Origin: Lytechinus pictus
Taxonomy: Eukaryota
Reading direction: 5' to 3'
Length of the DNA: 64,000 bases
NCBI RefSeq assembly: GCF_037042905.1
Contig: NC_087247.1
Location: 63,123,097 to 63,187,096 of the forward strand
Both the position numbers and the translations under genes were made by a program. Within the stretch, counting starts at the first letter, position 1; every line of letters begins with the position of its first letter. The notes beneath the pieces are model-generated. The model was given only the letters and a program-made list of their open reading frames with translations. It was not told the origin of the DNA and made no database searches. Shown here piece by piece: positions 18,101 through 44,709 of the stretch.

Positions 18101-18182
18101 GTTCAATATGAACGAAACAGATGGTGAAATTGATCAATTCGATGAAAGCCAATGCGAATTAGTAAAATATGTAATTTTACAA
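18101..18182 (+). CDS. PARP4: PARP4-like exon A (first recognised exon; the N-terminal BRCT exons were not found in the window)
   Basis: AG acceptor at 18099-18100, donor CAA|GTGAGT. Translation ..NETDGEIDQFDESQCELVKYVILQ resembles human PARP4 ..VEIPHLPQDFEVAKYNTLEK, compared from memory. Its phase-0 end matches the next exon. Confidence 0.55.
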
Positions 18183-19259
18183 GTGAGTATTATCAACAAT
18201 ATCCATATCTCTTAAAATAGTTGGGCATAAAATGCCCAACTTTTAACCAATCATGCTATGGGCAACATTCTGTCCACACAACTATTGGTTAAAATCTGCC
18301 CAAATTGGGTAATAAAAACTAATAATTGGGTAATAAATTTGCTCAATTTGATAAAAATTTAAAGAGTATCCTCTCTCAAGTAATCTAATACTTTATTATG
18401 TGTTAACGCTTGGATTATCAGGAGTTATTCAATTTTTTACTGGGATGTAAAGTTCGATTTGCGCCAATTATAGGCAAGGCTGCAATTAATTAATCCAGAT
18501 ACTAATGATTTCATAATACTTTATAATTAGTTAGTAAAAATATTTGCAAATCCCTTTTCAATGAAATTAACCTGAGAATTGATACTAAAAAGTATTTATT
18601 AAACAAATCTAATGTTAATGATTGAAAAGGTGTTTTGCAATGGATTTTAATGAAACCCTTGTAAGATTATGACATCATTGACATTCATTAATTTGGGTCA
18701 TGCCTTACTTTGATGCAAGTCAAAATTTAAATCACTATAAAGAATACCTACTAAGTATCTAAGTGTGAAGATATACCACATATATATGGTATCAAATTAT
18801 TTGGGAGAAGATAATCTTTCCGGTCATATATCTATTGAAAAACAGATAATGACAATTATTGACAATTAATGATTATGTGATCACGTCATATATTTACCTT
18901 GAAGTTAGGATTTGTGAGGTGTCAAGATTTGTTGTTGTACTCACACGGCATAACTTATCATACTTAATGTTCATTCAATGACTTATAAGAACTTTTTGGG
19001 ACACATCAATAAAAAACTACTTGTAAGTTAAGGCAGAAATTTGTAGTATAGGTCTATATATTTGTCTATCTGTCCATCATATTCGCACTTTAAAGTAATT
19101 CAGTGATCGGAGGTGAGTTGTTTCGGCAAATAGTGAAGGACTGGTGCTGCTTCACTATCCGAGACAACTGTAAATACAAATAGAAGCTCGGGTACATTAT
19201 ATTCATGTATTTCTACCGATCATTCAATATATTAATGATATTGGTATGCATACTTTCAG

Positions 19260-19418
19260 AAAGAAAAACTAGATGGAGATATACAATTTACATCTATTGA
19301 GTTGCATACAACAGTTGGGATTCCATTGGTTCTTCAGGGCCAATCAATCACAAGGTCAAAGGCCAGTCCTTATAGGTATAGAGTCTACACTCACCAAGGC
19401 ACCGTGTCTGATACAAAG
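19260..19418 (+). CDS. PARP4: PARP4-like exon B (WGR-like region)
   Basis: Acceptor tttcag|A, donor AAAG|GTATGT; 53 codons in phase 0 to 0. Translation is KEKLDGDIQFTSIELHTTVGIPLVLQGQSITRSKASPYRYRVYTHQGTVSDTK. Confidence 0.55.
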
Positions 19419-20036
19419 GTATGTACATTCATAGTATAGAGTGGTACAGAAGGGTGCCAATTTATTGGGTCGGTATCTTATACAATAAAACGTCATGAGA
19501 TGATATTTCAATTGCTATATGTATTTCATTTTGTTTATGTCAAGAATTGAAGTTAATATAAAATAAAAACCAATCAATAGAAAAAAACATACCAATTGCA
19601 AATTACAATAAACATAATAATATTATTATCATTATTGTAATTATTAATTTTTTTCGCACAAGTTTACAGATTATTTGATCATGTCTTAAAGATTATTTTC
19701 TTTTTGCATAATTCCAAAAAATTGTAATCTATGTTCTTTTCATAGCGCTCAGGGAAATATTTCAAACCACCATCGCCATTATTATCATGAGAAAGAGGAA
19801 GGGGGAGAGAGAAAAAGATGCAGGCAGAGACAGAAAAAAAAGACAGAGACAAAACAAACTACACAACCCTAATTGATAGTACGGAGGAGAGTGAAACGCT
19901 GACTGAATGAATGGATGATGACATTAGCATAGAAAGATAAAACTACATATAACGAATTTTTAAAATATGACATAAAGCTCTCTCTTCACCTCTCTACAAC
20001 TGTGTAAAATAATGCATCTCTCTTTCTGTTTGCCAG

Positions 20037-20198
20037 GATGAGAATTCAGGAATCAAGAAGAGTTATTTAGCAAAAACTGGTCCAGAGGCTTTGAAGATCT
20101 TCCAAGAGCAACATGATATATGGACATCTAAATCTCATAACATGACAAAAACTAAAGTAATGCTTTCGCGATGGCTGGGATCCAATGTTCTCACGAAG
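20037..20198 (+). CDS. PARP4: PARP4-like exon C
   Basis: Acceptor tgccag|GAT, donor GAAG|GTAAAG; 54 codons. Translation DENSGIKKSYLAKTGPEALKIFQEQHDIWTSKSHNMTKTKVMLSRWLGSNVLTK has a pattern resembling the PARP1 WGR segment ...AIEHFMKLYEEKTGNAWHS. Confidence 0.6.
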
Positions 20199-20506
20199 GT
20201 AAAGCTTTTGTTTCTTCAGAAAAACAATCTAATATGCATACAGAAATTTATGAATAATTCTACAGGTAATTGGTTTAAGAGTCTCATCTGCATCCCATTG
20301 TAATTGCTCTGCAAATTATACTACATTGTAGTATAATAGCATCCGAAGCATCAACAAATAGTGTGCTCTCTCAATATATCCTCTTTTTATCTTCTCCATT
20401 CATGTCAATCACCAATTCCCTGATCTCTTTTAACATTAGCTCTTCCGTTTTTCTTTAACTTTATTTCAATTCAAATATTAATTGTGTGAATATTTTCTTT
20501 AATCAG

Positions 20507-20644
20507 CGCCTACTTGAGTCTCAAGCATCCAAAGGAGAAGTTTCTTCTGAAGTAGCCCACCTTGCTGATAATCTATGGAAGGAATCGATGGGAGAACTTT
20601 CTCAAGTTCTTACAGTTCCTGTGAAATCTATTCCTATAGGGAAG
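20507..20644 (+). CDS. PARP4: PARP4-like exon D (start of the PARP regulatory/helical domain)
   Basis: Acceptor aatcag|CGC, donor GGGAAG|GTAATA; 46 codons. Translation RLLESQASKGEVSSEVAHLADNLWKESMGELSQVLTVPVKSIPIGK resembles human PARP4 LLEEVMNSSTLSQEVSDLVEMIWAEALGHLEHMLLKPVNRISLNDVSK. Confidence 0.75.
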
Positions 20645-20953
20645 GTAATATATCGCTTTCTAAAATTTAGGCGAGTGGTGCCAAAACAATCAAATCTTTA
20701 TAGTTTATCATACGGTTAATTGAATTCCTAGTAAGTATAATTGTATTTTATATTTAAACTACACAAAAACTAGCTTATCACAAAAAACAAAACATTTTGA
20801 CTTGAATTCAGGTCAGAAACATCATGTGTTTTTTTATTAGTACATGTATATAACAGCTTACATTCATTTAATTGGAATAAACAACTCAATAAAATTTAAC
20901 TAATGAAACAAACTTACTGAATATTTTTTTTTTCATTTCATCTCACTGTTTAG

Positions 20954-21136
20954 GTCGAGAAAGCCGAGTCTGTTCTTTTACAGATCAAGCGCGCCCTCCT
21001 CGACAAGGAAAGCAAGGATGAATCTGTCATCCATGGACTGAGTGAGCAGTTTCATGAACTAATACCACACAAGGCTGAGTGCAGAAATGATCTTACTAAT
21101 ATGAAAATGGTTGCCATCAAACAGGACCTCTGCCAG
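20954..21136 (+). CDS. PARP4: PARP4-like exon E (PARP regulatory domain)
   Basis: Acceptor tgtttag|GTC, donor TGCCAG|GTAGAA; 61 codons. The segment ..LSEQFHELIPHKAECRNDLTNMKMVAIKQDLCQ resembles human PARP4 ..TEFYRLIPHKGTMPKEVNLGLLAKKADLCQ and PARP1 SNRFYTLIPHDFG. Confidence 0.85.
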
Positions 21137-21764
21137 GTAGAAACTCTTACATATAACGTTTTAATAATTTTATGGGGACACTCTATTCTTTACTTTCCCC
21201 ACAAAATGTACAGATAAATTTTTAAATGATTACTAACAAAAGAAATTCCATGTCAAAATAGCAAAGGAGAAATATAGGTAAGGATCTGAAATGTTTGCCA
21301 TCTACGAAATTGGGAAATACATTTTTAAACTATTGTGATTATCACACTAGTCGACAAACGCCATTGATATGTTGATTTCCAATGTACATCCTCGTTCAAT
21401 CATTTCCATTTTAAAATGTAATTAAAGATAATGAAATGTTGTCTTTAAAACTTTCAAACCATTTTGCATTTTCAACGTTGATGAGTAGAAAATGAATGTA
21501 TTAAACTCAACAATGTTATTATATGAAATAGACATTTTATTCACAGTCATCTGGGATTCAATAAAATACAATGAATTAATGTACCTTTCATCGATAACTC
21601 TTGGTAGTTTATATTACTCAAAGACAAATGATTCAGTAATTAGCTTTTTAAAAGTACGGGAACTGTTTAATTTTAAAGGTAGGTTAAAATCGAAAAGATT
21701 TTCGATAATTTTCTACCCATATATCTAATGATTTATATTTTGTGATAATTTAATCTTGTATTAG

Positions 21765-21928
21765 CTAATCCAAGACGTGATTAATGTGAATGAAGCACTG
21801 GGATGGAAGAAGCAACCCTCATCTAAGTCTAAGTACCGGGCAATGAGGTGTTACATTGAGAGCTTAGATACAGATCATCCTGAATACAAGAAGGCTGAAG
21901 AACTCGTCATGAGCAGCTCACAACCAAT
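21765..21928 (+). CDS. PARP4: PARP4-like exon F (PARP regulatory domain)
   Basis: Acceptor tattag|CTA, donor CCAAT|GTAAGC, ending in phase 2. Translation LIQDVINVNEALGWKKQPSSKSKYRAMRCYIESLDTDHPEYKKAEELVMSSSQP resembles human LIRDMVNVCETNLSKPNPPSLAKYRALRCKIEHVEQNTEEFLRVRKEVLQNHHSKSP. Confidence 0.85.
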
Positions 21929-22380
21929 GTAAGCATCCTCTTTTTATTTAAGTTTGAACTTTGTATAAAGAGTTTATATAAACACGAAATACATACTTTG
22001 ATGGTTTATACATAATTGCACGGTGAAACGTATTTATAAAGAATGTAATTTATGTTGTCATTCATCTTTGCGATGCAGTAGTTTTGATTGATAATTCACA
22101 CACTGTCACGTGAAGCTTGAACATCTATATAAATTACGCAGGAATGTTTTTCTAAGGGCTAAGAATACACAAGATGTTCGAAACTATATTTCGATTCGAT
22201 AACAAATGTTTATTCATTTTTAAAATTATTCATTCATAAAATGAATTAAAATGGTCTGTTATACGTTTTATATACGTTCTGCAAGGAGTTTTGAAAAACG
22301 CCTTTTGAGTCTGCTTTCCATGATCTTATCTATTAGAGTTTCAACTTTATGACATGACCTTCTTTTCTATTACACGTTCT

Positions 22381-24112
22381 ACAGTGCGTCTAAAAAAAAC
22401 TATACACTTTTGAAAGGGCTACCAAACAAAAAATATGTCACTTTGGGGGGAAATATCTATATATATGGAAAGCCAATAAAGTCAACTTTCAGATGACATA
22501 AAGAAGTTGGAAAACTATTCATGCTTGAGTGAGCACTACCCACTAAAACAAAGGGTATGAAAATTAGGGAGGGCAGGAATTAGCCTTCTGATTTCTCTCA
22601 GTTTTTGAGAGGCGAGTCCCTTGGAACTTGCAAACTCGAGGGTGTTGTGATAAATTAATGGTCATTCATTATCAATTTAAATTGTTAGAGCAAACTTCAT
22701 GAATTATCAAATTGAACTTACATGCGTGAGTGAGCGTGAATTGCAATCTTTAGTGCAGCATTTTAACTTTACAATGTGGATCTCAGCAGTGTGTTCACTG
22801 GAGTCAGGAGAATAGGGGTAAGATAGGACTTCAGTGGGTGACGTAAGCTGATGGGAAAAGGGTCAACAGAACGTTTAGCCTCCCTCCTACAGGTCCGCCC
22901 CCCTCCTGTTTAGATCGAGACTGATTGCTATTACATGTACGCATGAAGTCTTAGCGGACTGTCAATTAGATAATAAATTCTGAATATTAGGTCATCAACT
23001 TTTACCATCAATCATTCAATCAGCAATTTGTTAGTAAATCAACTCAATCAATGTGAACAATCAAACATTAATCTTTTTCAATAAATTATTAATCAAAAAT
23101 TCAGCTTTCTCAATAAATTATTTCATAAATCACCATAATTAGTCAAGTTTTTAATAATCATTCAACGAGAAGAAAGACCCATCAACCATTAGCCACTTGG
23201 CATTTAAGTTTTAATACCATTCGGGAGAAAGAAAGGGGGTGGAGGGCGGGGGTGAGGACATGATTTGTAATTTGTAAGAGAACACAAAGAAGAATGCCCC
23301 TTTAACCCAGTCTTACCCTATCTCACCCCCTTGCATGTAACAGGTACATGTACCATCACATTTCTCTGACTCTCACAAGCACAGTTGCTAAAATCCACAT
23401 AATAAACTAAAAATGCAACGCCAAAATTATAATTCTTGTTTACTCATACATTATATTTCAATTTAGTAACTAAAATTTGCTTAAGAAACCAAAACTGATC
23501 TCAATTCATCAGTAACTTAGCATCCTCAACCTTGCAAGTTCCAAAGGACTCACCTAAAAAAAAACTAGAAGGCTAATTCCTGCTCACCCTAGCAAAGGCT
23601 AGTCTATCAGGAGGGGAGAAAGGGGTAGAGGGGGGGGGGGTTAAGTGTTTTGTTGACCCTTATCCCATCAACCTACTTCCCCCACCTAAGTCCAATCTCA
23701 CCCCTGTTCTGACTTCCATGAACGCATTGCTGAGATCCACTAGAAAAAGTTAAAATTGTATTTCATGTTCAGTCATGCATTAAATTTCAATTGAATAATT
23801 CTTGAAATTTGCTCTAAAAACCTAAATTGATAATGCTTGATCATTGATTTATCACAACACCATCAAGTTTGCAAGTTCCAAGGGACTCGCATCTCAAAAA
23901 CTGAAAGAAATTGGAAGGCTAATTCCTGCCCAGCCTAATTTCCATACCCTTTGTTTAAGTGGGTAGTGCTCACTAAAGCATGAACAATTTCCCAACTTTT
24001 TGGTGTCATCTGAAAGTTGACTTTATTGGCTTATAGGTATTTTTCCCCAAAGTGACATAATTTTTTTATTGGTAGCCATTTCAATAGTGTATAGTTTTTT
24101 TGAGACGCACTG
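22381..24112. mobile_element. Long-TIR DNA element (~1.7 kb) in PARP4 intron F-G
   Basis: 22381-22830 is the reverse complement of 23670-24112 (ACAGTGCGTCTAAAAAAAACTATACAC ... GTGTATAGTTTTTTTGAGACGCACTGT). The internal sequence GGAAGGCTAATTCCTGC occurs at 23560 and 23915 and in reverse complement at 22570. Confidence 0.75.
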
Positions 24113-24303
24113 TATACTCACTACCTAAGAAACTTCTTTGTTTTATTTCAATTGACAATGGATAAAAGTTTATATACCCTCTTTTTATTTGAAGAAAAAT
24201 GGATTTAGCAGTAATAGCTCTTTTGACGTTTTGAAGTAAGCCGATAATATTTAGCCTTTCCAAGTAGCATACCATTGCGATGACCAATATTTTTTGCACT
24301 TAG

Positions 24304-24441
24304 CGATCACATGGTTTCGATTCAACGAATCTTTGCAATCAATCGAGCCCTCGATGAATTCAAATTCAATCGAACGATTGGGAATGAAAGACTGCTCTTC
24401 CATGCATCGAAAGCTTGCAACTTCCTCGGAATCCTCTCACG
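24304..24441 (+). CDS. PARP4: PARP4-like exon G (start of the PARP catalytic domain, containing the NAD-site His)
   Basis: Acceptor cacttag|C, donor CACG|GTAAAT. Joining with exon F gives ..SQP-I-DHMVSIQRIFAINRALDEFKFNRTIGNERLLFHASKACNFLGILSR, which resembles human VDVLQIFRVGRVNETTEFLSKLGNVRPLLHGSPVQNIVGILCRG. Confidence 0.85.
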
Positions 24442-24828
24442 GTAAATAATATTAACGATTCCCTACTTGGATTTTTAAAAATCTTTTTCATGTAAATGCA
24501 TATGTAATCGTTATAATCAAGAGATTTGGCTAAAATGATGCCTGTGATTGCAGTAAGCGACGTGATCAGTATTAAAATAAAAACAACTCCAAGTACGTAA
24601 ATAATTATATGCTGCAGTTTTGGTGTAAAATTGACTTTAAATACATTATATTTTTAAGTGTGGTGAAAAATGCAACAGTTATTGACAATTTTAAAACATT
24701 TCTTCGTGGCAGCCCCTCAGCTTATGGTCCATCAATAAAAAACTTTCCTAATCTGAGCTAAAATATTCCCAGCTTAATTTTTAAACACGTCAACAAGGTC
24801 AATGCTGTCTTTTATTATCCTTTCACAG

Positions 24829-24927
24829 TGGTATTCTGCTACCAAAGATCGTGGTCGAGATGTTTGGTATCGATCGTTGGGATGCAGGGATGCTTGGGAG
24901 TGGAATCTATTTCGGAGATTGTATGAG
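24829..24927 (+). CDS. PARP4: PARP4-like exon H (catalytic domain, GSGIYF motif)
   Basis: Acceptor tttcacag|T, donor ATGAG|GTAATC. Translation (R)GILLPKIVVEMFGIDRWDAGMLGSGIYFGDCM resembles human LLLPKVVEDRGVQRTDVGNLGSGIYFSDSL. Confidence 0.85.
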
Positions 24928-25673
24928 GTAATCCTGATATATCCATATCACCATTATGATATTATAAAATACAGTCATGAACAGCTACTCTAAAAAACGT
25001 ACTGCAACCTTTACAGAAACTGAAATACAATCGGCGACATGTTCATAATTTCGATTGATACATTGGCAGAATATTTACGAAACGGAGTGAAAAGAATGAC
25101 ATTTCCATCAAAGTCTTTGATATACAGTAGATCTATCGAAATTCTTATATATCGATGGATGGAATCTTAATATGGCATTCCGAAAATTATTATAGCAGTT
25201 AACGTATTTTACGAGTTTATCCTTTTGGGCTTTCAAATGAAATAATTATATTGGTTACTATGGATGATTCTCCAACTACATTGACTAACCTGTATGATGA
25301 TAATAGTTCGTTTAAATATCTATGTTCGATTCATCCTAGATTACCTTCTGTGCTATACGTAACGACGCCTTCATGAATCATACACAAACTTATACCTCAA
25401 CTCCCCTCATTTGCGGTGTCTTTCTCTCAACGTGCTTAGAGAAGGCAAATTATGTCCTATGGGATTATAAAAAGGTTTAATTATTAGGCCCTACGTTTAT
25501 TTTTATTATCGTTATTATTCTGATTTTGAATTATGAATTGAAAATAGTTCAACTGATACTTTAAATAATGACACATTTTAGAAGTTTGACATAAAGAATT
25601 CTTTTTGTTTAATTCAAAATTGTATATAGGAATCATTTTCAATTAAAAATATGTTTACCTTTTTTATTTTTAG

Positions 25674-25857
25674 TACTTGTTCAAAGTACTCCACACCTGG
25701 TAAGTTTACAGGAACACGCTTCTTAGCAATCAACAACGTAGCCCTTGGGAAAATGAAGGATATCTATGAGAAGAGGACAGATATTGAGTGTGCACCTGAA
25801 GGATTTGAAAGCGTTCATGGTGTTAGGAAGACTGAGCAAAATGAATCCTTCTTTGTG
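25674..25857 (+). CDS. PARP4: PARP4-like exon I (catalytic domain)
   Basis: Acceptor ttttag|T, donor TTTGTG|GTATGA. Translation STCSKYSTPGKFTGTRFLAINNVALGKMKDIYEKRTDIECAPEGFESVHGVRKTEQNESFFV resembles human STSIKYSHPGETDGTRLLLICDVALGKCMDLHEKDFSLTEAPPGYDSVHGVSQTASVTTDF. Confidence 0.9.
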
Positions 25858-26330
25858 GTATGATTGATTAAAATTCATATTTTTACAAACGCACCCTCAC
25901 TCCCTCTCCTAACGCACCACATATTCATACTCACTCCCACCTACATACGCTCTCCTCTACACACCATAAGTTATAAACCTCTCTCTCTATCTCACACATA
26001 CCCCACACCCAACCACCAACCCAAACACTAACACCCCACATACCCTCATCACCCACTATCATTCTAACTTACATACACCCATTCGCTCTTGCACTCCAAC
26101 AAATTAGCGAATTAACACACTATGACTGTTTAGAAAAAGCTTAATTCCGTTGGAGAAAATCCATGTATTTCAAGACAGTTTAGCCAAAATATTTTAATTA
26201 TTCTACGTTCTCTGTAAAATATAAAATCGTATATATTTCACAAAATATGTTGCAGATTATGCAGTAAGTAATTTTATCTTGCACAAAATTTTAACCAAAG
26301 TTAGGATTTTGTTTATGTAAATGATTTTAG

Positions 26331-26514
26331 GACGATGAGTATGTGGTTTACCAAGCCAACCGACACTGTCTTCGCTACCTCGTTGAGTTCAAGTTGATAG
26401 AAAGAAATTCAGATGATACAGACAATCAGTCTGCTTCAGCATCCCAAGTCTCAATCAGTGATGACAGTAGCGGTGATGATACGGACTCTGATGATAACAA
26501 TGATGACGAAATAG
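26331..26514 (+). CDS. PARP4: PARP4-like exon J (end of catalytic domain with the catalytic Glu, followed by an acidic linker)
   Basis: Acceptor gattttag|GAC, donor AATAG|GTATAC, ending in phase 1. The segment DDEYVVYQANRHCLRYLVEFK resembles human DDEFVVYKTNQVKMKYIIKFS and PARP1 NEYIVYD. It is followed by a D/S-rich acidic stretch. Confidence 0.8.
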
Positions 26515-26827
26515 GTATACTAAGTACATACACTTCCACACTTATTGAACATGTGTGGATGACTTTATCATTAAGTTTTCTATGTCTATTCATATTAGAT
26601 TTAATTACGAAAGTCAAATTTAAGTGCGTCGTAGAGTATTGTACTTGATACTCAAGAAACTCAGATATTGTGTTATATTCAACCAAACCTACAGAGTCAG
26701 TTATTACACAAAGTAATGATTGCTCTTTTGCTATGTTTCTTTGTCCCAGTGTTATCTTTTTTGACAGCTGTCAGAAACATACATCTTTCATTTCAAGATA
26801 ATTATTTCAAACTGTTTCTCAATATTA

Positions 26828-26958
26828 GACATCCTTGATGTGCAAGGAATGGTGTATCCTGAAGCCAAGGTCAAGGCAGGTCTTAATACAACAGGTGAAG
26901 GTCAAGTTGAATTAGAAGCTGTTCATGTCAGGGCATCAATCATTGACCTGGCAGCAGA
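26828..26958 (+). CDS. PARP4: PARP4-like exon K (start of VIT domain)
   Basis: Acceptor aatattag|AC, donor GCAGAG|GTAATT. Translation DILDVQGMVYPEAKVKAGLNTTGEGQVELEAVHVRASIIDLAAE resembles human ..LPDAKTSSSTKAGLQDASGNLVPLEDVHIKGRIIDTVAQ. Confidence 0.8.
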
Positions 26959-27561
26959 GGTAATTTTCAATCCATAATACTGCACTTATGTCAACTCTCA
27001 TCTAATATCAATGGTGTTATTATTCATATCTGGTGTTATTGACACAAAATCATTGAAAACATACAAAATTGAAAGTAAACTACTGCATTATGCGTTATCC
27101 AACCGTTCTTTGGTATTACACATTTTCACACTGGTTGTCTTCTATGACATATTGACTTTATGTTTATTTACATTTTTTTTTCAAAAGAGATATATTTGTT
27201 ATAATGATAAAGACAGTATGTGAACTGTAAATCTACAACACAGTTTTCATATGATTGCCTACGTGTGATTAAATAATAAAATTTATTTCTTTTTATGTGA
27301 ATTCGGCTCATGAATAAAATTCTTTTAAAACGTTTGAACCGCAAACGTCTTTACGGAGTTGAATGGCAGAAATTGAGAGCTACATGTATATAATTCGGAT
27401 AAGCATTGAAGCTATGAAATAGATGACGAGGATCTGTGAAATTTATTTTTTTTGTCTATAATCCTATCACCAATGTCAGTGACAATGAAGTGACTTTGGG
27501 TTCATTCGCTACCAGTGAAACTATGGAACATATTTTTACTTATCAATTACATTTTTCCAAG

Positions 27562-27780
27562 GTAATTGTTCTGCAGAAGTACCGAAACATTGGTGAGCAG
27601 ACTGCGGAAACCCGTTACGTCTTTCCTCTTGATGAGCGAGCAGCTGTTTGTGGATTCGATGCCTATATCAATGGCAAACACGTCATCGGGATAGTAGAGG
27701 AGAAAGAACAAGCGCGGAAGTCATATGACAAAGCTAAAGAACAAGGACATGGGGCTTACCTCATGGAAGAAGAGGCAGCG
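27562..27780 (+). CDS. PARP4: PARP4-like exon L (VIT domain)
   Basis: Acceptor tttttccaag|GTA, donor GCAGCG|GTTAGT; 73 codons. Translation VIVLQKYRNIGEQTAETRYVFPLDERAAVCGFDAYINGKHVIGIVEEKEQARKSYDKAKEQGHGAYLMEEEAA resembles human VIVFQTYTNKSHVPIEAKYIFPLDDKAAVCGFEAFINGKHIVGEIKEKEEAQQEYLEAVTQGHGAYLM. Confidence 0.9.
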
Positions 27781-28140
27781 GTTAGTGATGAAACAAAGTC
27801 CCATGATATCAAAGAAAATAACACTAATAGTATTTACTTATTTACGTATTTTCAAAAGTGTACATATACATTATTAAAGATACTGTGCATGATATATGAA
27901 AAGAGAGAGATAGTGAGAGAAGCAGAGGGAGGCATTTAATAAGTTTCATTTTCTTTTTATTTGACTGGTGTTTTCAAAATAATTATCTCGATTTATCTGT
28001 TCTCGTTCTTCCATAGTCGGAATAAAAACACCATGGACATGGTGTTGCCTTGCAAATTTGCAAGATAAAAGCTTACGTGCTTGAGAAAGGGCTTGAAAGA
28101 TAAGTTTCAACAAAGATTAGGAATTTCATAACCTTTAAGG

Positions 28141-30104
<1,964 letters not shown>

Positions 30105-30167
30105 CTTTAAGGTTTGTATTATATTAAATGATTCTAAGCTTGAACTGTGATTACTTTTGTTCTAAAG

Positions 30168-30379
30168 AATGTCTTTGCAATCACCGTTGGGAATCTACCT
30201 CCTGGCTCATGCGTTGTCATCTCGGTTCGATACGTTACTGAGCTGGTAGTCGAGGGTGACCGTATTGCATTCAATCTACTTGGAAGTGTAGCGCCATGGA
30301 AGAAGAAAGAAATTCTGATGGGCTCTGTTGATGAAAAGGGTGACGCAGTAGATGGCGTCGTCGAAAACAAGCAAAATAG
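30168..30379 (+). CDS. PARP4: PARP4-like exon M (VIT domain)
   Basis: Acceptor ttgttctaaag|AAT, donor AATAG|GTTAGA, ending in phase 2. Translation NVFAITVGNLPPGSCVVISVRYVTELVVEGDRIAFNLLGSVAPWKKKEIL.. resembles human DVFTVSVGNLPPKAKVLIKITYITELSILGTVGVFFMPATVAPWQQDKAL. Confidence 0.85.
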
Positions 30380-31400: not shown

Positions 31401-31482
31401 GAGTGAATCTTTCATGGCCAAGGTTGAAATGCCCTCTAGGATTAGAAGCATCCACTGTCCTACTCACTCAATTAAGGTTCAG
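31401..31482 (+). CDS. PARP4: PARP4-like exon N (end of VIT domain)
   Basis: Acceptor tattcttcag|G, donor GTTCAG|GTAAGC. Translation (R)SESFMAKVEMPSRIRSIHCPTHSIKVQ resembles human KQSFSLTMSIEMPYVIEFIFSDTHELKQ. Confidence 0.75.
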
Positions 31483-31941: not shown

Positions 31942-32143
31942 GTGAGTGGTGGGAGAGCATGAAATAATTTTGGATGAAATATTTTATATTTCTAATACAT
32001 TTACCGTTAGTTTACATAAAACTTAAAATTGCATCAAAATGGGAATATTCAAACTTGTTAATTATCAAGGGTAATTTACGTTCTTTGTCATCAGAAAAAT
32101 AATGTTCAAAGTTTGCTCGGTTGTCTTTGAAATTAAACTTTAG

Positions 32144-32330
32144 GCGTGCATGGTGGTATTTTATCCGGAGTTTCCTGTGACAACTATAGAGAACCCTGAA
32201 GTAGTCATCATGTTAGATCGTTCGACATCCATGAAAGGACAACCAATGAATGATGCTAAGAAGTTGGTGCATATGGTATTAGAAAGCCTTCCTCCACAGA
32301 GCCGTTATAACCTTGTCGTTTTTGGAAATG
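32144..32330 (+). CDS. PARP4: PARP4-like exon P (VWA domain with the metal-ion-dependent adhesion site, MIDAS, motif DxSxS)
   Basis: Acceptor aaactttag|GCG, donor AAATG|GTATGT, ending in phase 1. Translation ACMVVFYPEFPVTTIENPEVVIMLDRSTSMKGQPMNDAKKLVHMVLESLPPQSRYNLVVFGNG resembles human ACMLVFQPDLDVDLPDLASESEVIICLDCSSSMEGVTFLQAKQIALHALSLVGEKQKVNIIQFGTG. Confidence 0.9.
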
Positions 32331-32846
32331 GTATGTATTCGGAAGCAAACTGAATGAGTGATAACAAGTCAATTCAGCAAACATTCAAAATAGACTGATG
32401 GTTCAGCAGTCTTTTTCAGTATCTAAAAATGAGATTAGAATATTCTAGAACGATCAGACATGGAGCTGGAATCAGATAAAAGGTGCGATCAATATATTAC
32501 CATGCAAAGAATCCACCCAGAATACTCTATACTATAAGCCATTCTTCTCTAATAACTTTACCACTTGAAATGTGTTTAATAACAGGTATTCATGCGATGG
32601 CTTTTTTAAATCAAGGACATTCCAGAAATAGTATTTTAATGTGGCTAATATCATACCAGATGGGGATTTGGGCTTGGTTTTATTGAATTCATAGGGTACG
32701 GTAATCGAGAACTGTAGTTCAGTCTCTGTGCAATTCAGCGTGGAATAGTTGTAACCAACTCATGCGACGTGCGTATAACCATTTAAGTTAAACACCTACA
32801 GATTTTCATTTTCGTTATAGATTTAATCGTTATCATTTTCACTTAG

Positions 32847-33114
32847 ATTTCGATGAGTTATACCCAACTAGCGTCTTAGCAACTGATGAGAACATCAAAC
32901 ACACTGAATCGTTTTTGATGACGGTAACTTGGGAGCGTGGAGCTACAGAGGTTTGGAGGCCATTGAGAGCTATGTCTCTTCTCTCATCTAGCGATGTTCG
33001 TCTTACCAGCAACGGATTTCTTATCTCTGATGGCCACGTGACAAATGAACAAGATACGCTCTTAGAAGTAGCGAGTAATCGCCAAATCAATCGCCTCTTC
33101 ACATTCGGAGTCAG
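32847..33114 (+). CDS. PARP4: PARP4-like exon Q (VWA domain)
   Basis: Acceptor ttcacttag|AT, donor GTCAG|GTAACT. The segment ..WERGATEVWRPLRAMSLLSSSDVRLTSNGFLISDGHVTNEQDTLLEVASNRQINRLFTFGV resembles human ..MGNTDFWKTLRYLSLLYPARGSRNILLVSDGHLQDESLTLQLVKRSRPHTRLFACGIG. Confidence 0.9.
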
Positions 33115-33555
33115 GTAACTACGTAACTTTAATTTGATTAGATTTTATGTACTTATGAATTATATGATGCTGTATAGTTTTGCAATGTAATGTGTCTGTG
33201 TGACTGGTGTTAGCTGGTCAGTGACGTCACATGCTAAGTGTTTGGTTTGTCAGGTTTAGTGTTATATTGTGTAATGTGATGTTGTGTGGTTTGTTTCTAT
33301 GCTAAGTGATGTGGTTTGATGTGATGTAATGTGATGTCTTTGATGGTGATATTTAGTGTGAGGTGATTTGCACTGATTTTTTTTTTAGGTTTGGTTTGGC
33401 GTAGGTGTTTATTGTTGCTGAGATGTTACATGATGCAATAATTGTGATACATTCGAAATCGATGTTCATCCATTGTTATGCGGAAAGTGAAGTGTGAAGT
33501 GATAACTTTTGAATTAAGTGGTTTTGAACATGAAATTTATTTTGTATTATTTCAG

Positions 33556-33655
33556 TTCTGAATCAAACCGTCACGTTTTACGTACTCTAGCTGATACAGG
33601 AGGTGGAGCTTATGAACAATTCGATCCCAGGAGCAAATCTACTTGGGAAGCAAAG
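33556..33655 (+). CDS. PARP4: PARP4-like exon R (end of VWA domain)
   Basis: Acceptor tatttcag|T, donor GCAAAG|GTAACA. Translation SESNRHVLRTLADTGGGAYEQFDPRSKSTWEAK resembles human STANRHVLRILSQCGAGVFEYFNAKSKHSWRKQ. Confidence 0.85.
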
Positions 33656-33972
33656 GTAACACTCTAGTTGCAGTTGTGTGGGAGCGTCGTAATGGTCATG
33701 GCAAATTATTCTCGCAGAGGGTCATGCGTTCGTATATATCTGAGAAATTTCATTATGCAAGAAATTGATCAAAAATGTGCTGCACTCAACCATCGTGTAT
33801 TCAATGGGTTTCTGGCAAGAATATAAATTACTTGAAACGTACGTGTGCCTCGACGGTGTTCGGTTACAACCATTATAGTAGTGACTTTATGTGAGGACCA
33901 CACCCACACCTGCTCAATCTCAAATATCCCCATTACTAAATGTATCACCATTCTCCCTCCAGACATTCATAT

Positions 33973-34142
33973 ACACTGTAAAAAAATGAAGTGCTAATTT
34001 AGCACTTAAAGTGCTTGTATAGTGACTGCACTTCGAGTGCTGATTTTCTAGTTTAAATTTGAACAAGAAAATCAGCACTGGTAGTGCAGTCACTATACAA
34101 CACTGGAAGCGCTAAGTTAGCACTTCATTTTTTTACAGTGTA
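33973..34142. mobile_element. Palindromic MITE, family 'C' (170 bp), copy 1
   Basis: A perfect hairpin: ACACTGTAAAAAAATGAAGTGCTAATTTAGCACTTAAAGTGCTTGTATAGTGACTGCACTTCGAGTGCTGATTTTC pairs with its reverse complement. Confidence 0.8.
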
Positions 34143-34476
34143 TACCAACACAATCACACCCACAATATCCACCTCAAACATATTGTCCAGTGGGCCCAAC
34201 GTGTATGGTTATGAATAATATAGTCACATTTGCATCCTCCACATTGTCGACTTGAGACTTCCTTAAGAAAATATAGCTAATACAATTTGATCTATTTGAA
34301 GAAAAAAAAAAGGAAAAAAAGTCACATCCTCAAACTTTTCAACAAAATGTTTAATCCAGTGTTTCCATCATTAAGTCAATTGTTCTAAAAACATAACCTC
34401 CTGCGTGTTACTGTAGCTTTATCACATCAACCTATTTCAACCCTATAACTGAATATTCTACCATTTATTAAACAAG

Positions 34477-34665
34477 GTTCAATCACAAGTGAGGCGTTCT
34501 TGTCAGCCTGCAGCCACGTCAATCAAAGTCAACTGGATCTCAACAAAGGGTGATGCACCAATACATTTGACAAGGAAGGAGATAGTTCAAGCCCCTTCCC
34601 AGAATGCATCACTATTCACAGGAACGCGATTGGTCCTTTATGCCATGGGTCCAGAGGTTTCCAAG
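34477..34665 (+). CDS. PARP4: PARP4-like exon S
   Basis: Acceptor aacaag|GTT, donor TCCAAG|GTGTGT; 63 codons. Translation VQSQVRRSCQPAATSIKVNWISTKGDAPIHLTRKEIVQAPSQNASLFTGTRLVLYAMGPEVSK resembles human IEDQMTRLCSPSCHSVSVKWQQLNPDVPEALQAPAQVPSLFLNDRLLVYGFIPHCTQ. Confidence 0.8.
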
Positions 34666-35096
34666 GTGTGTTTCCATTCTATGTATATGTAAAGGCCAAT
34701 GTCGCAAATATACTTTTCACAAGAGTAATGAACACAATTATTTCAGGTAATCAGCATTAGATATGAACAGAAACGAACGTTCAAATTTTCAGAACAAATT
34801 ATAGGAGACCTTAGTTCACAGCTTTGAGTTTACACCATTACGTTATGTCAATTTTGAACATAACTCCAAATAATGAGGTAATTGCTAACCACTATGAAGT
34901 TTTGATATATCTTGTTAATTTGCCACTTTTGGTGCAAATATTACTGTTGAAATCAAGAAATATCTTTTGTTTCGTGTTATATTAAAATAAATTAAGGTGA
35001 TCAATTATTTAGAAAAAAAAATGCATGCTCACCCTGCAATCAATGAAAACTATGATGGGTTTTTTCTTGTAAACATTTCTGATGTTTATGATTAAG

Positions 35097-35177
35097 GTGG
35101 AACTAGAAGCAGAGATTGAAGGAAGAACTGAATGTTTTGAAGTATCAGCCGACGAAACATCTTCAGCGAAAGGGTTG
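35097..35177 (+). CDS. PARP4: PARP4-like exon T
   Basis: Acceptor gattaag|GTG, donor GGGTTG|GTAAGT; 27 codons. Translation is VELEAEIEGRTECFEVSADETSSAKGL. Confidence 0.65.
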
Positions 35178-35224
35178 GTAAGTATAATGAATCTAATCCC
35201 CATTGGCAAAGTATACACCATGTA

Positions 35225-35520
35225 CTAGGTGCAGTGGCGTACCGTGAGTCGCGCTCAATCGCCAGGTATACTGACCTAATAGAAACATTTTAAGGACAGT
35301 GCTTTAAACGGAAATGTATCTCACTGATCAAATAATGCATACCTGTCTCGCTAAACAAACATTGCGATTATAATATAACATTATAATGAACAGTGATTTC
35401 TTCTTTCCCACTACGTTTCTCTTTCTTTCTCCCTCCCACTTTTTCTCCTCCCCCTTTTTTTCCAGCCGATGGGGGGGGGGGGGGGGGGGCACGTGCCCCC
35501 CATGCCCCCCGTAGTTACGC
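35225..35520 (+). mobile_element. Fragment of the S-family / hAT-like element (terminal region)
   Basis: GTGGCGTACCGTGAGTCGCGCTCAATCGCCAGGTATACTGACCTAATAGAAAC is homologous to 15990-16110. It ends with G23-CACGTG-C6 and the TAGTTACGCCACT terminus. Confidence 0.6.
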
Positions 35521-35783
35521 CACTAACTAGGTGAAATGTTATCTTGTATTTATCTCACACAACTGCGTGTTATACACAAATCGACCAGATAATGTTTTAT
35601 TGTAACTCCTATATCAATTTTAACTGTCTGTCAATATTGGTGGCAATGAGGATCAAAACTATTGTTATGATATTTCTATACTTACGATACATTTCATATC
35701 GCGATCTCCGCGTAGCGAGACATACATAGAAACCTGGTATTCTAACTTATATGTGAATTCCTTTCTTATTTGGTTTAATCTAG

Positions 35784-35966
35784 ACTCTACATCGTTTGGC
35801 CACTCGAGGAATCGTTAGAGACTGGGAGCTTGGTTCTGTCCATGCAAACAGACTGGAGAATGATGCCATGATGGATGATGTAAGAATACATCTTGTTAAA
35901 CTAGGAGTTGAGTTTAACATCGTATCTCCTCTCACCAGCTTTATCGCCATAGAGAAGAGAGATGAG
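35784..35966 (+). CDS. PARP4: PARP4-like exon U (conserved TSF[IV]A[IV]EKRDE segment)
   Basis: Acceptor taatctag|ACT, donor GATGAG|GTAAGC; 61 codons. Translation TLHRLATRGIVRDWELGSVHANRLENDAMMDDVRIHLVKLGVEFNIVSPLTSFIAIEKRDE resembles human KLAARALIRDYEDG...SLITQFTSFVAVEKRDE. Confidence 0.85.
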
Positions 35967-37201: not shown

Positions 37202-37324
37202 GAGGACGAGAATATGGATACCGACGGACCGTCGCTGACTACTATCTTAGAAGGATTGTGGCCAACGTCTTACAACACGAGCTCACCTTGGATAATACAG
37301 GATGCATCAACAGGAATAGAAACG
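37202..37324 (+). CDS. PARP4: PARP4-like exon V (acidic linker)
   Basis: Acceptor tttgaaag|GAG, donor AAACG|GTATGC. Only the frame EDENMDTDGPSLTTILEGLWPTSYNTSSPWIIQDASTGIET is phase-compatible with both neighbouring exons; the alternative frame runs into a stop at the next exon. Confidence 0.55.
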
Positions 37325-37619: not shown

Positions 37620-37769
37620 AGCTGCAGTATGACCCAAGTGAATGAGACATTGACCCGTGCGAGCAGTGCGCAAAGTTCATTCTCCTTTGTTACTGCTGAA
37701 CATCAATACAAACAAGCTTGGAAACTTGCTACTGATTCCTTTGAACCACTTCATCCAGCCGTTCAGAAG
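37620..37769 (+). CDS. PARP4: PARP4-like exon W
   Basis: Acceptor tatttatag|AGC, donor CAGAAG|GTCAGT; 50 codons. Translation is SCSMTQVNETLTRASSAQSSFSFVTAEHQYKQAWKLATDSFEPLHPAVQK. It is phase-consistent with both flanking exons. Confidence 0.55.
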
Positions 37770-39794: not shown

Positions 39795-41703
39795 ATGCAA
39801 AAATCTACTAAACAAGGAAGACCTTAAGACGTGGAAAGACCAAAAGCAAGCGGTGGAAATGGGAACTTCTATCAGCACATGTGATGAATTAGAATCTGAG
39901 TCTCTGGTTCTCGAAGAAGAAATAATTGTTCCTGAGGAAGAGACTGTTGTCATGAGTTCCCCTCCTATAGATCAAGGTTTAGAAGTCATAGCCGTGGAGG
40001 AGGTGAAATCTATGCCATTATTTCTCGAGGAAGAAACATACTACGAAGCTTCATGTGATGTCTACGAGACGGTGGAGGAAATAACAGTTTATCATCCAGT
40101 ATTATTGAAAGCAGCTCCAGAGCAGGCAGCCCAAGAGTTACCCATCATGCATGAAATTAAATCAGTCAGTAAAGAATCTTACATTGCAGAACATGCTGAG
40201 ATAATCGAATGTATCGAGCCATCAGAAAAAATGGAGTTACGAGCTGAGTCACCCGTGATGTTGGAGGCAAGACGAGCTCCTTCACCAGTGATGTTGGAGG
40301 CAAGACGAGCTCCTTCACCAGTGATGTTGGAGGCAAGACAAGAGCTATCACCAGTGATGTTGGTGGCAAGACGAGAGCTATCACCAGTGATGTTGGAGGC
40401 AAGACGAGAGCCATCACCAGTGATGTTGGAGGCAAGACGAGCTCCTTCACCAGTGATGTTGGAGGCAAGACGAGCTCCTTCACCAGTGATGTTGGAGGCA
40501 AGACGAGAGCTATCACCGGTGATGATGGAGGCAAGACGAGAGCCATCACCAGTGATGTTGGAGGCAAGACGGGAGCCATCACCGGTGATGTTGGAGGCAA
40601 GACGAGCTCCTTCACCAGTGATGTTACAGCGTGATGAATCTCCCGTGCTCATGATGCGCGAATCAGCCAAACTTTCATACGCATTGGCAGAACATGACGA
40701 GAGAGTCCAATTACAGCGTATTGAGCCAGTAGAAATGGAGTTACGAGCTGAGTCACCCGTGATGTTGGAGGCAAGACGAGCTCCTTCACCCGTGATGATG
40801 GAGGTAAGACGAGAGCCATCACCAGTGATGTTGGAGGCAAGACGAGAGCCATCACCAGTGATGTTGGAGGCAAGACGAGAGCCATCACCAGTGATGTTGG
40901 AGGTAAGACGAGCTCCTTCACCCGTGATGATGGAGGTAAGACGAGCTCCTTCACCAGTGATGTTACAGCGTGATGAATCTCCCGTGCTCATGATGCGTGA
41001 GGTTCAATCAGTCCAGCTCTCATACGCAACAGCCGTGGCAGAACCTGTTGAGACAGTCCAACTAGAGCTGGAACTACGAGCCAAATCACCCGTGATGTTG
41101 GACGAAATACGAACGCCGTCACCGGTGATGTTACAGCGTGCTGAATCTCCTGTGTTAATGATGCGTGATGCTCAATCAGCACAGCTTTCATATGAAATGG
41201 CAAAACCTGTTAAGACAGTCCAATTAGAGCCTATTGAGTCAGAAGAACTGGAACTACGAGCCGAATCACCCATGATTTTGGATGCGGTACGACCTGTGTC
41301 ACCGTTGTTGTTGGAGGCAAGAAGAGCCCCGTCACCAGTGATGTTGGAAGCAGTCCAAGAAGTGAAAATGTCACTAGCAAGTGCTGTTGCGGAACCCATT
41401 GAACGACTACATGTTGAAAGCAGAGATGAGGAGTTAGAAGAGATTGAGGTCCGTGCTTCATTACTTGATCAGATATTTGAGACGGTTCGATCGACCAAGT
41501 TACATGATGACGTTCAAGATCATGTTGAGAAGCTACGACGGATGCCTGATGCCTGTGCTCCCTACAAATCGTATCTGGCGACTTCTCCCAAAGACAAAAA
41601 AGATGAGAGTGTGAACGACGAGAAGAAGGTTGATGGGGTTGTGAATGATCAAGATAAACCAGGAATTGAAACAATGAGGCGTTTGCTAAAGATATCACAA
41701 GAG
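39795..41703 (+). CDS. PARP4: PARP4-like exon Y: 636-codon tandem-repeat exon (about 25 copies of SPVMLEARR[AE][PL], separated by QRDESPVLMMR. spacers)
   Basis: Acceptor tgctgcag|A, donor CACAAGAG|GTGAGT. A single long ORF sits in the same frame as exons X and Z. It lies where human PARP4 has its S/P-rich low-complexity region, and it ends ..DKPGIETMRRLLKISQE. Confidence 0.65.
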
Positions 41704-42399
41704 GTGAGTTTAAAATGTACCTCTTATAAACATAAACAATTGATCGTCATCTTTTGGTCATTCATCGATTTGCTCAAAATGTTCTTACTTTTTTATTCTT
41801 CCCTTTACCTGTTGAAACACTTAACACATAAGTGAACTGCTTAGTACATCTACTTTCTGACGTGTGCAGTTAAGTTTCAGTATATTTATTTTGATATCGA
41901 ACTTTTTTGTATTAAACTTAAGTAATACATGAATATAATGGTAACGATACCAGCCTAAAGATAGGAATTCAGTAGCTAATAGGTCACAATAAATGCACCA
42001 TATCACAATGCAACTTAATTTTGTAAAGTAATCCATATACTAATAATTTGGTGTACCTGGTTCATTCGATTCATTCATACTTTTTAATAATTTATCTACA
42101 TGTTTATTTTGCACGGCCACTCTGTTTCATCATACCTATAACCATAATAAATCTTATATTTTGATGAAAGATGTCCCTCCTCAACAGTTTCCGGACACTT
42201 GCCCCTGTGACAATTGCTCCTAATGAAAATGTACACGTTAAGCCAAAGATAGACCTGGGCTTCAAACCTTACCTTAATCCTTATCCTCACTTGATTCTGA
42301 ACTAAAAAACCCTATCACAACCCTAAATCTCCCATCTTCAGAAAAATTAACAAGGGGTGATTGTGTCGAGAGAGCGCAACTAGCAGGCGCTGATCCAAG

Positions 42400-43680
42400 G
42401 GGGGGGGGGGGGCGAGCCGGCCCGCCCCCCCCCTATTTTTTGGCAACCCCAACAAAAAAAACTTGAGAGAAACGCTAAAAACAGAAAGAAAAGTTCGAAG
42501 GGGGTATTATACCCATGTTTAATTTACGGCCTCGTAACTGCCGGCCCGATCCCCACAGAGGCCTACTCGCAGTGGCACCGCACTCTGCATTGATTCACAT
42601 GCAGGGAAACCACGCTACCGCAACTGCGCATCAAGACATTGTCCTGCACATTGGGTTTCCTGCACTCCATCAAAGGCCGATTAGCTCAGCATAGGACGAT
42701 TACCTTATGCGCACAAGTAGGCCGTAAAACATTAAAAAATGCCTACAATGTCCCGTTTCCAGGCCTTAATATCAGATTTCGAGCTCTCATTAATATTAGA
42801 TGATAAAAGAAATGTATTAAGAATGCCCAGAGTCTATGGCCCGTATTCTGAAGTCAGGTTTAAGTTAAACCTGACTTCAGAATACGGACCTATAGGTCTA
42901 AATCTCAAAAACACGTGCACACAATAGATACGCAGTTTTTTTCTCAAAAGGTGCTTGAATTATCCAGTTTCATATCAGAATATCACAAATTTTCATCTCG
43001 AGCTTCGCGCTTGCATTTTGTAGGAAGATACCCAATTTGTCATCCTTTTCGGGATTTACGAAACATGAATAGTGTGTCCCGTTGTTAGGTCTATATCTCA
43101 TTTTTGTTCGCTCGCGCTTCGCGCTCGCATGAAATGTTTAGTTATATACTTATCCTATCTATGATTATAAAAAGTGCTTAGAATGTCAAATTTTTAGGTC
43201 AAAATATCAAAAAATTTCAGCTCGCGCTTCGCGCTCGCATTATTTGATCATTGAAATATGTATCGTTTTCATGGGTAACTGCAAACAGTTCTGTTTTCCA
43301 TCAGGCCAGATCGTATATTAAAAATACCTGCTCGCGATTCGCGCTTGCAGTAGTTATTTAGTTACATACACATCTTGTTCACGATCACAATCATTGCTCA
43401 ATATGTTCAATTTTCAGGACAAAAAAAGAAGACATTTCCTAAAAAAAAAAGCTTGCGCTTCGCGCTTCTACTATTCAATTAGGGCTTATATGAGAATATT
43501 ATTTATTAATTTATGTTTTGTTAGAATAAAGCTAAGAAGTGACTACCACTTCAAAGAAAAAAATACAAATCAACTTTGAGCTGCCGATCGGGGAAAATAT
43601 GAGTAATTTTTATTTTCGGCCCCCCTATTAGCGAAAGCTGGATCCACCCCTGACTAGCGAGGTAACTCTTTGACAATGGT
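42400..43680 (+). mobile_element. S-family satellite-bearing element copy
   Basis: GCTCGCGCTTCGCGCTCGCAT units at 42990-43480. The right end GAGCTGCCGATCGGGG...AGCTGGATCCACCCCTG is homologous to 10560-10660. A perfect 26-bp hairpin lies at 42838-42895. G12/C9 runs sit at the left end. Confidence 0.65.
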
Positions 43681-43721
43681 ACATCACCTAGTTTCATGAC
43701 TTCAAATTATAATAAATATAG

Positions 43722-43854
43722 GATAATGACGGATGGTGGACATGGAACCTCAACGATTTGGAGACAGAATTCGGAGTTGATTGCAGAGCTATTACTGCAG
43801 CTCTTCATAACCCTAAAGACAGCTTCTGCTTGGTTGACAGTTTAGTGGACAAAT
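43722..43854 (+). CDS. PARP4: PARP4-like exon Z (C-terminal region similar to the MVP-interaction domain)
   Basis: Acceptor aaatatag|GAT, donor AAAT|GTAAGT, ending in phase 1. Translation DNDGWWTWNLNDLETEFGVDCRAITAALHNPKDSFCLVDSLVDK resembles human EDGFWKLTPELGLILNLNTNGLHSFLKQKGIQSLGVKGRECLLDLIAT. Confidence 0.7.
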
Positions 43855-44401
43855 GTAAGTATGTGTTATTATCACATAGATTTCACGTAAGGGAATGTTC
43901 TTCTCATTTACGTGATTACAGTAGATTTTTACGCGACACCATCCTGCATCTATTAGATTGATGATGCACCTAAATTTGAGATGGCTTTCATTAACAATCA
44001 AGGGATGGAAATGGAATACGATTCTAAAACTGGTTTAGTTATTAGGGATACCGATGTGACCAGTCATTTAACTTCTATCCCGTTACACCAACGATCAGTA
44101 ATACTGGATAAACCATAACCAGATACTTAGCAATACCCATACTCCATGGCCAAATATTATTACGTGCGGAGTTGATATGTGGATTCTTTACTAATAATGG
44201 ATAGCGGTCATGATGTATTTCTTGAGTTAAAAATTATTTAAATGCAGATTGTTCATGATTCAAATCTTCTTTCCTTTTATCAACGCTTTGCCTAAAGTAT
44301 TATACTTTTCAACTGTTGCTATAAATTATAGCCGATAATCGATATTGGTATTTGTTTTGAGCGTAAAAAGAATGGTATACAATCGTATCTCCTTCTTGCA
44401 G

Positions 44402-44709
44402 GGATGTCATCGATGGATGAAATCAAGACGATTGTAGCATCGGCTCTAGTGCTGTCTATTTTTGATACATGGGTATCACGGGTAGAATTCATGGTTTCTA
44501 TACTGATGAAAGATGACCCTGAAATTCTCTTTATTCCTGCTCAAATACAAGAGTGGTTTAAGCATTGCTTACCCATTGATGTCATTCAGTTACACACTAT
44601 GGCCTTTGGCGAATCATCCACCTGGTCTTCAATCCTGGAGCGATTTCCACCTGATGTCATCGAGGATGTTATACGGCCTATCAGGAATTGCATGATCAAT
44701 ACTCGTTAA
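44402..44709 (+). CDS. PARP4: PARP4-like terminal exon AA (stop codon at 44707-44709)
   Basis: Acceptor ccttcttgcag|GG. Translation (W)MSSMDEIKTIVASALVLSIFDTWVSRVEFMVSILMKDDPEILFIPAQIQEWFKHC...NTR* resembles human ..DLIATMLVLQFIRTRLEKEGIVFKSLMKMDD. Confidence 0.7.

Follow-up and report, generated by a model that had tools for sequence, protein, structure and literature searches.

We analyzed 64,000 nucleotides of Lytechinus pictus DNA (NCBI RefSeq assembly GCF_037042905.1, contig NC_087247.1, positions 63,123,097 to 63,187,096; hereafter the window, in whose own positions all coordinates are given). Its forward strand very probably carries an ortholog of PARP4, the vault PARP of clade 5A, within what reads as an AT-rich invertebrate metazoan genome. 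The PARP4 gene was rebuilt as a chain of 27 exons that runs for 26.6 kb from an acceptor at 18101 to a TAA stop at 44707–44709. The spliced coding sequence has 5928 nt and encodes a product of 1975 residues. All 26 introns are bounded by GT and AG, the phase is kept across the model, and the frame has no internal stop and ends in a single one. Judged from its sequence, the locus appears to be an intact multi-exon PARP4 gene formed by one 27-exon chain. An earlier note on this DNA had described 27 phase-consistent GT-AG exons from 18101 to a stop at 44707–44709, and our chain has the same ends, count, and splicing rules; the note gave no exon coordinates, and the agreement covers these three aspects. 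It had also said that a six-frame list of open reading frames breaks the gene up, and such a list indeed shows only fragments. The exons and the domains to which they are assigned are listed below.

18101–18182, forward strand: exon 1, with an ATG at 18108, encoding MNETDGEIDQFDESQCELVKYVILQ; ab initio, with a strong acceptor and a CAAGTGAGT donor
19338–19418, forward strand: exon 2 (weak), encoding GQSITRSKASPYRYRVYTHQGTVSDTK, the core of the putative WGR-like region; placed ab initio, phase 0 to 0
20037–20198, forward strand: exon 3, remainder of the putative WGR-like region; ab initio
20507–20644, 20954–21136, and 21765–21928, forward strand: exons 4–6, HD/PARP_reg, assigned by tblastn and by the human PARP4 alignment from residue 237
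24304–24441, 24829–24927, 25674–25857, and 26331–26514, forward strand: exons 7–10, ADP-ribosyltransferase (ART) fold followed by an acidic Ser/Asp linker, assigned by Pfam PARP
26829–26959, 27562–27780, 30168–30379, 31401–31482, and 31801–31941, forward strand: exons 11–15, VIT domain and the following β-rich region, assigned by Pfam and tblastn
32144–32330, 32847–33114, 33556–33655, 34477–34665, 35097–35177, and 35784–35966, forward strand: exons 16–21, vWA domain with DRSTS, and post-vWA region ending in TSFIAIEKRDE
37202–37324, 37620–37769 (weak), and 38947 (or 38908)–39050, forward strand: exons 22–24, start of the non-conserved linker; ab initio
39795–41703, forward strand: exon 25 (1909 nt), an acidic N-flank, an 11-residue repeat array, and a C-flank running into the MINT-like domain
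43722–43854 and 44402–44709 (TAA at 44707–44709), forward strand: exons 26–27, C-terminal helical domain, a candidate MINT domain

PARP4 identity of the core

The window is intron-rich eukaryotic DNA with an AT-rich composition (ca. 32–38% GC in most 2-kb windows). Its forward strand contains, from 18.1 to 44.7 kb, many short stop-free stretches in which PARP, VIT, and vWA peptides are recognizable. A 497-residue concatenate of the clearest pieces found 132 relatives, and the best named ones are all PARP4. These PARP4 relatives come from the coral Desmophyllum, birds, mammals, fish, the snail Candidula, and the oyster Crassostrea; weaker matches are to bacterial VIT-vWA proteins and WGR-PARPs. 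Aligned to the window by tblastn, 14 relatives gave strictly collinear matches from 20.5 to 36.0 kb. The VIT exon is 47–62% identical to its PARP4 homologs in this comparison, and exons 16–21 also match snail and oyster PARP4. The splice sites of core exons 4–21 were placed around each tblastn homology block, and the resulting exons (20507–35966) join into an open frame with GT-AG introns and consistent phase. The GC content is 45% in the coding sequence of the whole model versus 34% in its introns.

We judged orthology by the best match over the whole core. When all PDB chain sequences were searched, residues 96–1067 of the product aligned in a single collinear stretch to residues 237–1183 of human PARP4 (E = 3.5e-189, 634 bits). 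The second match is to the crystal chains of the PARP4 catalytic region, 8sx1/8swy (4.5e-71), and PARP1, PARP2, and PARP3 follow with 1e-13 to 1e-18 (PARP1, 3e-18). These clade 1 enzymes share the HD and ART module with its H-Y-E triad, but they lack VIT and vWA, carry the catalytic domain at the C-terminus, and have E-values that are ca. 170 orders of magnitude poorer than that of PARP4. The tandem of VIT and vWA recurs in inter-alpha-trypsin inhibitor heavy chains (ITIH; ITIH4, E = 5.8e-13) and in bacterial VIT-vWA proteins (many matches), but neither group has a PARP domain, and the match is confined to the middle third of the window protein.

The domain composition points the same way. Pfam PARP scores 90 bits (cut-off 26.7) at residues 253–425 of 1975. 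VIT follows directly downstream of the catalytic domain with 113.5 bits at residues 498–608 (VIT_2, 44 bits), and residues 750–903, after VIT, match VWA_3, VWA, and VWA_2 with 57.6, 36.6, and 30 bits, respectively. PARP_reg reaches 25.3 bits at residues 139–230, just below its cut-off of 26.8. A mammalian PARP4 fragment also misses the cut-off with 24.1, and coral PARP4 narrowly exceeds it with 29.7; hence, a low PARP_reg score is normal for the family. The HD that precedes the ART fold aligns to the HD of human PARP4 and to the 8sx1 chain. The predicted H-Y-E triad lies in LLFHAS, GSGIYF, and DDEYVVY, which align to human LLHGS, GSGIYF, and DDEFVVY, and the DxSxS motif of MIDAS type in the vWA domain is DRSTS, aligned to human DCSSS. 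The order PARP-VIT-vWA with a mid-protein catalytic domain defines clade 5A/vPARP (PMC2964712).

The earlier note had recognized vPARP from the fusion of PARP, VIT, and vWA domains, and the database relatives, the best PDB match, and the Pfam domains all agree with it. The regulatory, catalytic, VIT, and VWA domains it had named are borne out as well, the regulatory one by its alignment to the human HD at a score just under the Pfam cut-off. The motifs it had quoted are present, either exactly or as the variant of the window: LIPHK, GSGIYF, DDEYVVY (human DDEFVVY), YVFPLDERAAVCGF, DRSTSMKG, and TSFIAIEKRDE. As exons 4–21 align collinearly to human PARP4 with an E-value of 3.5e-189, this agreement of motifs is far beyond chance. 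PARP4 is reported for all animals apart from insects and nematodes, and nearly any other animal genome should contain an ortholog.

Human PARP4/vPARP (1724 residues; PDB 11jf, 9bw6, 9bw7; catalytic region 8sx1, 8swy) and the window protein share the order HD-ART-VIT-vWA-linker-C-terminal helical domain. They have in common the strings LIPHK, GSGIYF, FPLD..AAVCGF, and EKRDE, the H-Y-E and DxSxS motifs, a long low-complexity linker before the last domain, and a PARP_reg score below the cut-off. They differ in that no BRCT was detected in the window protein, and in that its WGR region is far shorter and without significant similarity. The human linker is Pro/Ser-rich and irregular, whereas that of the window protein is a regular tandem array of 11-residue units. 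The MINT-like domain is marginally similar, with S1614 and K1618 not conserved, and the total lengths are 1975 and 1724 residues, respectively. The best overall database relatives are invertebrate PARP4 predictions, which share the domain set: Desmophyllum pertusum PARP4 (P0001) is 39% identical over 100% of the 497-residue core query, Magallana/Crassostrea gigas K1QKB6 (P0124) is 50% identical over the VIT part, and Candidula unifasciata PARP4 (P0004) is 37% identical. They differ in their post-vWA regions, which have no detectable similarity to exons 22–25, and they are too distant to come from the same species or genus.

Gene model outside the core and the two ends of the protein

Three gaps in the model were filled with a codon log-odds model and splice-site weight matrices. 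The training set comprised 20 homology-anchored exons, i.e., the 18 core exons and exons 26 and 27, and the scores were calibrated against 1605 decoy AG...GT open intervals taken from introns that are exon-free by homology. Exons 3, 22, 24, 25, and 26 outscored all 1605 decoys, exon 26 being itself part of the training set. Decoys scoring equally or better numbered 3 for exon 1, 10 for exon 2, and 15 for exon 23. Some boundaries have alternatives: exon 15 may start at 31801 or 31807, exon 24 at 38947 or 38908, and the donor of exon 10 is ambiguous among 26472, 26514, and 26523. Exons of 12–30 nt proposed by the dynamic-programming gap filler were discarded as over-fitting. The frame at 27427–27561, upstream of exon 12, was considered as a degenerate duplicate or alternative of exon 11 and rejected with an alignment score of 14 versus a shuffle mean of 16.7.

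Several observations weigh against the PARP4 assignment. Seven of the 27 exons (1–3 and 22–25) are ab initio, placed by coding and splice scores alone, and two of them, exons 2 and 23, score weakly relative to the decoy intervals. No BRCT exon was detected in the window by tblastn with eight PARP4 N-termini, and a hidden Markov model (HMM) of 11 PARP4 BRCT regions, run over every segment free of stops on either strand, reached an E-value of 0.39 at best, at unrelated sites. The 105-residue product of exons 1–3 ranked third of 1000 (itself and 999 shuffles) against an HMM of 12 PARP4 WGR regions, with an E-value of 0.69. At the other end, the C-terminal 590 residues (post-vWA region, linker flanks, and C-terminal domain, with the repeats removed) found no homolog at E ≤ 0.01, and phmmer of the C-terminus against PDB sequences failed to recover human PARP4. 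When 1.84 billion representatives were searched exhaustively with the last exon, a single short relative came up. The AlphaFold2 model of this exon is all-helical like MINT, with a predicted local distance difference test score of 49 that is too poor for fold comparison. The human MVP (major vault protein) contacts S1614 and K1618 (PMC12280208) align to Asp and Ser in the window protein, at a place where the alignment is weak.

Human PARP4 has the order BRCT-WGR-HD-ART-VIT-vWA-MINT (PMC10711553, PMC12280208), and an N-terminal BRCT has been described for animal PARP4 (PMC4245714, PMC10711553). In the coral PARP4 fragment, too, no BRCT is present at the start, and a short WGR-like stretch is seen. 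In the window protein, the N-terminal 105 residues, whose exons are ab initio, have no Pfam WGR match. By eye, PYRYRVYTHQG resembles SRYRIFTQLG in the WGR region of the coral protein, and the product of exon 2 resembles 'GSRYRIFTQLGNL' of coral PARP4. Human PARP4 has likewise not retained the W-G-R residues (PMC10711553). We infer a short, divergent WGR-like stretch whose WGR identity is unproven; the WGR-like N-terminus of the earlier note is thus upheld as a resemblance by eye and not by statistics, given the third rank among 1000 and the missing Pfam match. Exon 1 begins at an acceptor, which implies a further 5′ exon (untranslated or coding), maybe beyond the window; no exon spliced to the acceptor at 18101 was found in the upstream 18 kb (1–18100). 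In human PARP4, vault-RNA binding maps to the BRCT. As no BRCT exon was found, this binding may be absent, or be encoded outside the window. The ortholog had been called complete: the chain is intact to its stop, while completeness relative to vertebrate PARP4 is unproven, with no BRCT detected.

The human MINT domain comprises residues 1562–1724. We confirmed the sequence of human PARP4 1521–1724 against the PDB chain and aligned it with the last 230 residues of the window protein. The Smith–Waterman score is 61 versus 32.9 ± 5.4 for shuffles (z = 5.2), and none of 500 shuffles reaches it. The alignment is collinear across the joins of exons 25, 26, and 27, with the end of exon 25 aligning just upstream of and into MINT. 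It is the only homology evidence that ties the end of exon 25 and exons 26–27 to PARP4. The single relative of the last exon is a 94-residue fragment from a 655-bp ENA contig, 64% identical (63% in the MAFFT alignment) and too little for a profile. A Foldseek search of the last-exon model against PDB returned matches all with E > 5, which are meaningless. The C-terminal helical domain thus weakly resembles the human MVP-interaction (MINT) domain. For the C-terminal domains that had been proposed earlier, the weak pairwise similarity to MINT speaks in favor, and database homologs are missing except for the 94-residue fragment.

The same ends of the protein would also fit a PARP4-like clade 5 paralog that retains the PARP-VIT-vWA core, has lost the BRCT, carries a C-terminus not specialized for MVP, and plays a non-vault role. 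The BRCT exon not found in the window and the marginal MINT similarity, with the human MVP-contact residues not conserved, are in line with such a paralog, and so are reports that PARP4 was duplicated independently and varies in architecture in sea urchin, frog, Trichoplax, and lancelet (PMC4245714). However, similarity to human PARP4 extends through the whole 950-residue core (E = 3.5e-189), the C-terminal similarity is weak but collinear and rightly placed, only one copy is visible in the window, and the coral PARP4 fragment also shows no BRCT. We therefore regard a paralog as improbable and retain the PARP4 ortholog.

Detectable homology is lost after the conserved TSFIAIEKRDE, in exons 22–25, and the vertebrate/oyster motif 'EDVD..Y.SW' was not found in the gap between exons 21 and 25. 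Exon 25 lies inside a 702-codon open frame with an in-frame ATG at 39760, in surroundings of 34% GC, and its coding score is far above those of the decoys. Its array (40183–41100) has a TRF period of 33 nt with 91% matches and a higher-order unit of ca. 0.5 kb in three copies (repeat families D1 and D4). The array encodes ca. 27 units of 11 residues with the consensus EARRAPSPVML (27 SP[VML]xx units), and exon 25 contains 29 Ser-Pro dipeptides. In human and oyster PARP4, the position of the linker is occupied by an irregular stretch of low complexity. Hence, the property of being low in complexity is conserved while the sequence is lineage-specific, and the linker is probably disordered. The strand opposite the array is open for 270 codons owing to the repeat alone. 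Pfam matches of exon 25 to 'Mucin-like' and Phd_YefM were treated as low-complexity repeat artefacts.

This loss of homology raises the question of two genes, a PARP-VIT-vWA gene ending near exons 21–24 and a separate gene downstream that would comprise the repeat exon together with exons 26 and 27. Exons 22–25 have no homologs, they join the rest only by compatibility of splice sites and phase, and the frame of exon 25 has an ATG of its own at 39760. On the other side, the GT-AG joins are phase-compatible throughout, the end of exon 25 and exons 26–27 align collinearly to the C-terminal region of human PARP4, a long low-complexity linker is found here in the human and oyster proteins as well, and neither a stop nor a break of polyadenylation type was identified downstream of exon 21. 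We give this division even less weight than the paralog, and treat the 27 exons as one PARP4 gene.

Inverted repeat and surroundings of the gene

A near-identical inverted repeat of 1.95 kb brackets the putative promoter and exons 1–12 of the PARP4 gene. Its arms, 15588–17540 and 28164–30104, are 10.6 kb apart; the left arm stops 560 bp short of exon 1, and the right arm is contained in intron 12. Over 1956 alignment columns, the arms differ by one mismatch and three indels in homopolymer or microsatellite runs. Each arm is a composite of units of ca. 200 bp resembling short interspersed elements and a purine-rich microsatellite of GAAA/GGAA type, a makeup that speaks less for a single transposon than for a recent segmental duplication in inverted orientation or an artefact of assembly. 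A young pair of elements is a further possibility. The present orientation of the segment between the arms gives a collinear gene. Homologous recombination between the arms could invert the gene's 5′ half, as it does between the int22h repeats of human F8.

The near-identity of the arms, the position of the left arm 560 bp upstream of exon 1, and the failure to find an upstream BRCT or 5′ exon, though exon 1 starts at an acceptor, could suggest that the locus was recently disabled or misassembled, the repeat being an artefact or a rearrangement and the 5′ end with its BRCT exons misplaced, but this is highly improbable as exons 12 and 13, on either side of the right arm, have exactly the order and orientation expected from human PARP4, every exon is open and has canonical sites, and the sequence itself shows no error.

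Other repeats lie within and around the PARP4 gene. A short interspersed element occurs in many diverged copies on both strands (8732–10261, 16100–16650, 29040–29580, 35250–35338, and 42864–43318). Its translation repeatedly reads 'SARASRSH', and several copies are located in PARP4 introns and in the arms of the inverted repeat. Intron 6 contains two inverted arms of 281 nt (22470–22750 and 23752–24032) that are 86% complementary and 1 kb apart, with the look of a foldback element or a miniature inverted-repeat transposable element.

Aside from these, we observed the following features. A fragment of a retrotransposon without long terminal repeats is located at 51089–53356 on the forward strand, where a stop-free stretch of 542 codons matching RVT_1 (133 bits) is followed by one of 213 codons matching the zinc-binding domain zf-RVT (38 bits). 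Upstream of the PARP4 gene, an open reading frame at 13781–14131 on the forward strand is PHD-finger-like (21.7 bits, below the Pfam cut-off), and open reading frames at 14570–15330 on the same strand look by eye like an apurinic or retroelement endonuclease ('LNVNSLLRHIGE...FAVNETKID') with no Pfam match. The region 13781–15330 is probably the 5′ part of another retroelement. Related repeats of ca. 170 nt occur at 3301–3705, 4394–4798, and 14145–14544. Two satellites are present: 49315–50344 has 5–6 copies of a unit of ca. 154–163 bp, with one more copy at 57852, and 59426–59739 has two copies of a 157-bp unit. Rfam and tRNA scans of the window gave no match, and no other convincing cellular gene was seen in its repeat-rich remainder, including the 18 kb upstream of PARP4.

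Proposed function and meaning

If the protein works like human PARP4 (PMC12280208, PMC10711553), its C-terminal domain would attach it to the inner face of the MVP cage. The long flexible linker would tether the enzymatic and VIT/vWA modules and let them reach into the vault lumen, where VIT-vWA may serve as an interaction module. The catalytic domain would use NAD+ to mono-ADP-ribosylate the protein itself, MVP, or cargo. We infer all of these steps, i.e., docking, tethering, and ADP-ribosylation, from orthology; the MVP gene is not in the window.

A more far-reaching proposal is that of a remodeled vault PARP. Such a protein would be BRCT-less, without vault-RNA binding of the human style. 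Its tether from vWA to MINT would have been replaced by a young, still-homogenizing Ser-Pro array of ca. 27 units, possibly a spacer that is phospho-regulated or variable in length, and the promoter with exons 1–12 would be invertible between the repeats. We hold this proposal to be rather unlikely, albeit somewhat less so than a paralog.

The PARP4 gene of the window is an ordinary ortholog of a well-known family, and its identification is a routine annotation result. Its value lies in a hand-checked exon model of a long gene that views based on open reading frames fragment. The near-perfect inverted repeat that encloses the gene's 5′ half is flagged as a possible assembly problem or inversion substrate. 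For the family, the gene adds an invertebrate data point in which HD-ART-VIT-vWA is strongly conserved, MINT barely so, and BRCT is not detected, and which bears on the ancestral functions of vault PARP.

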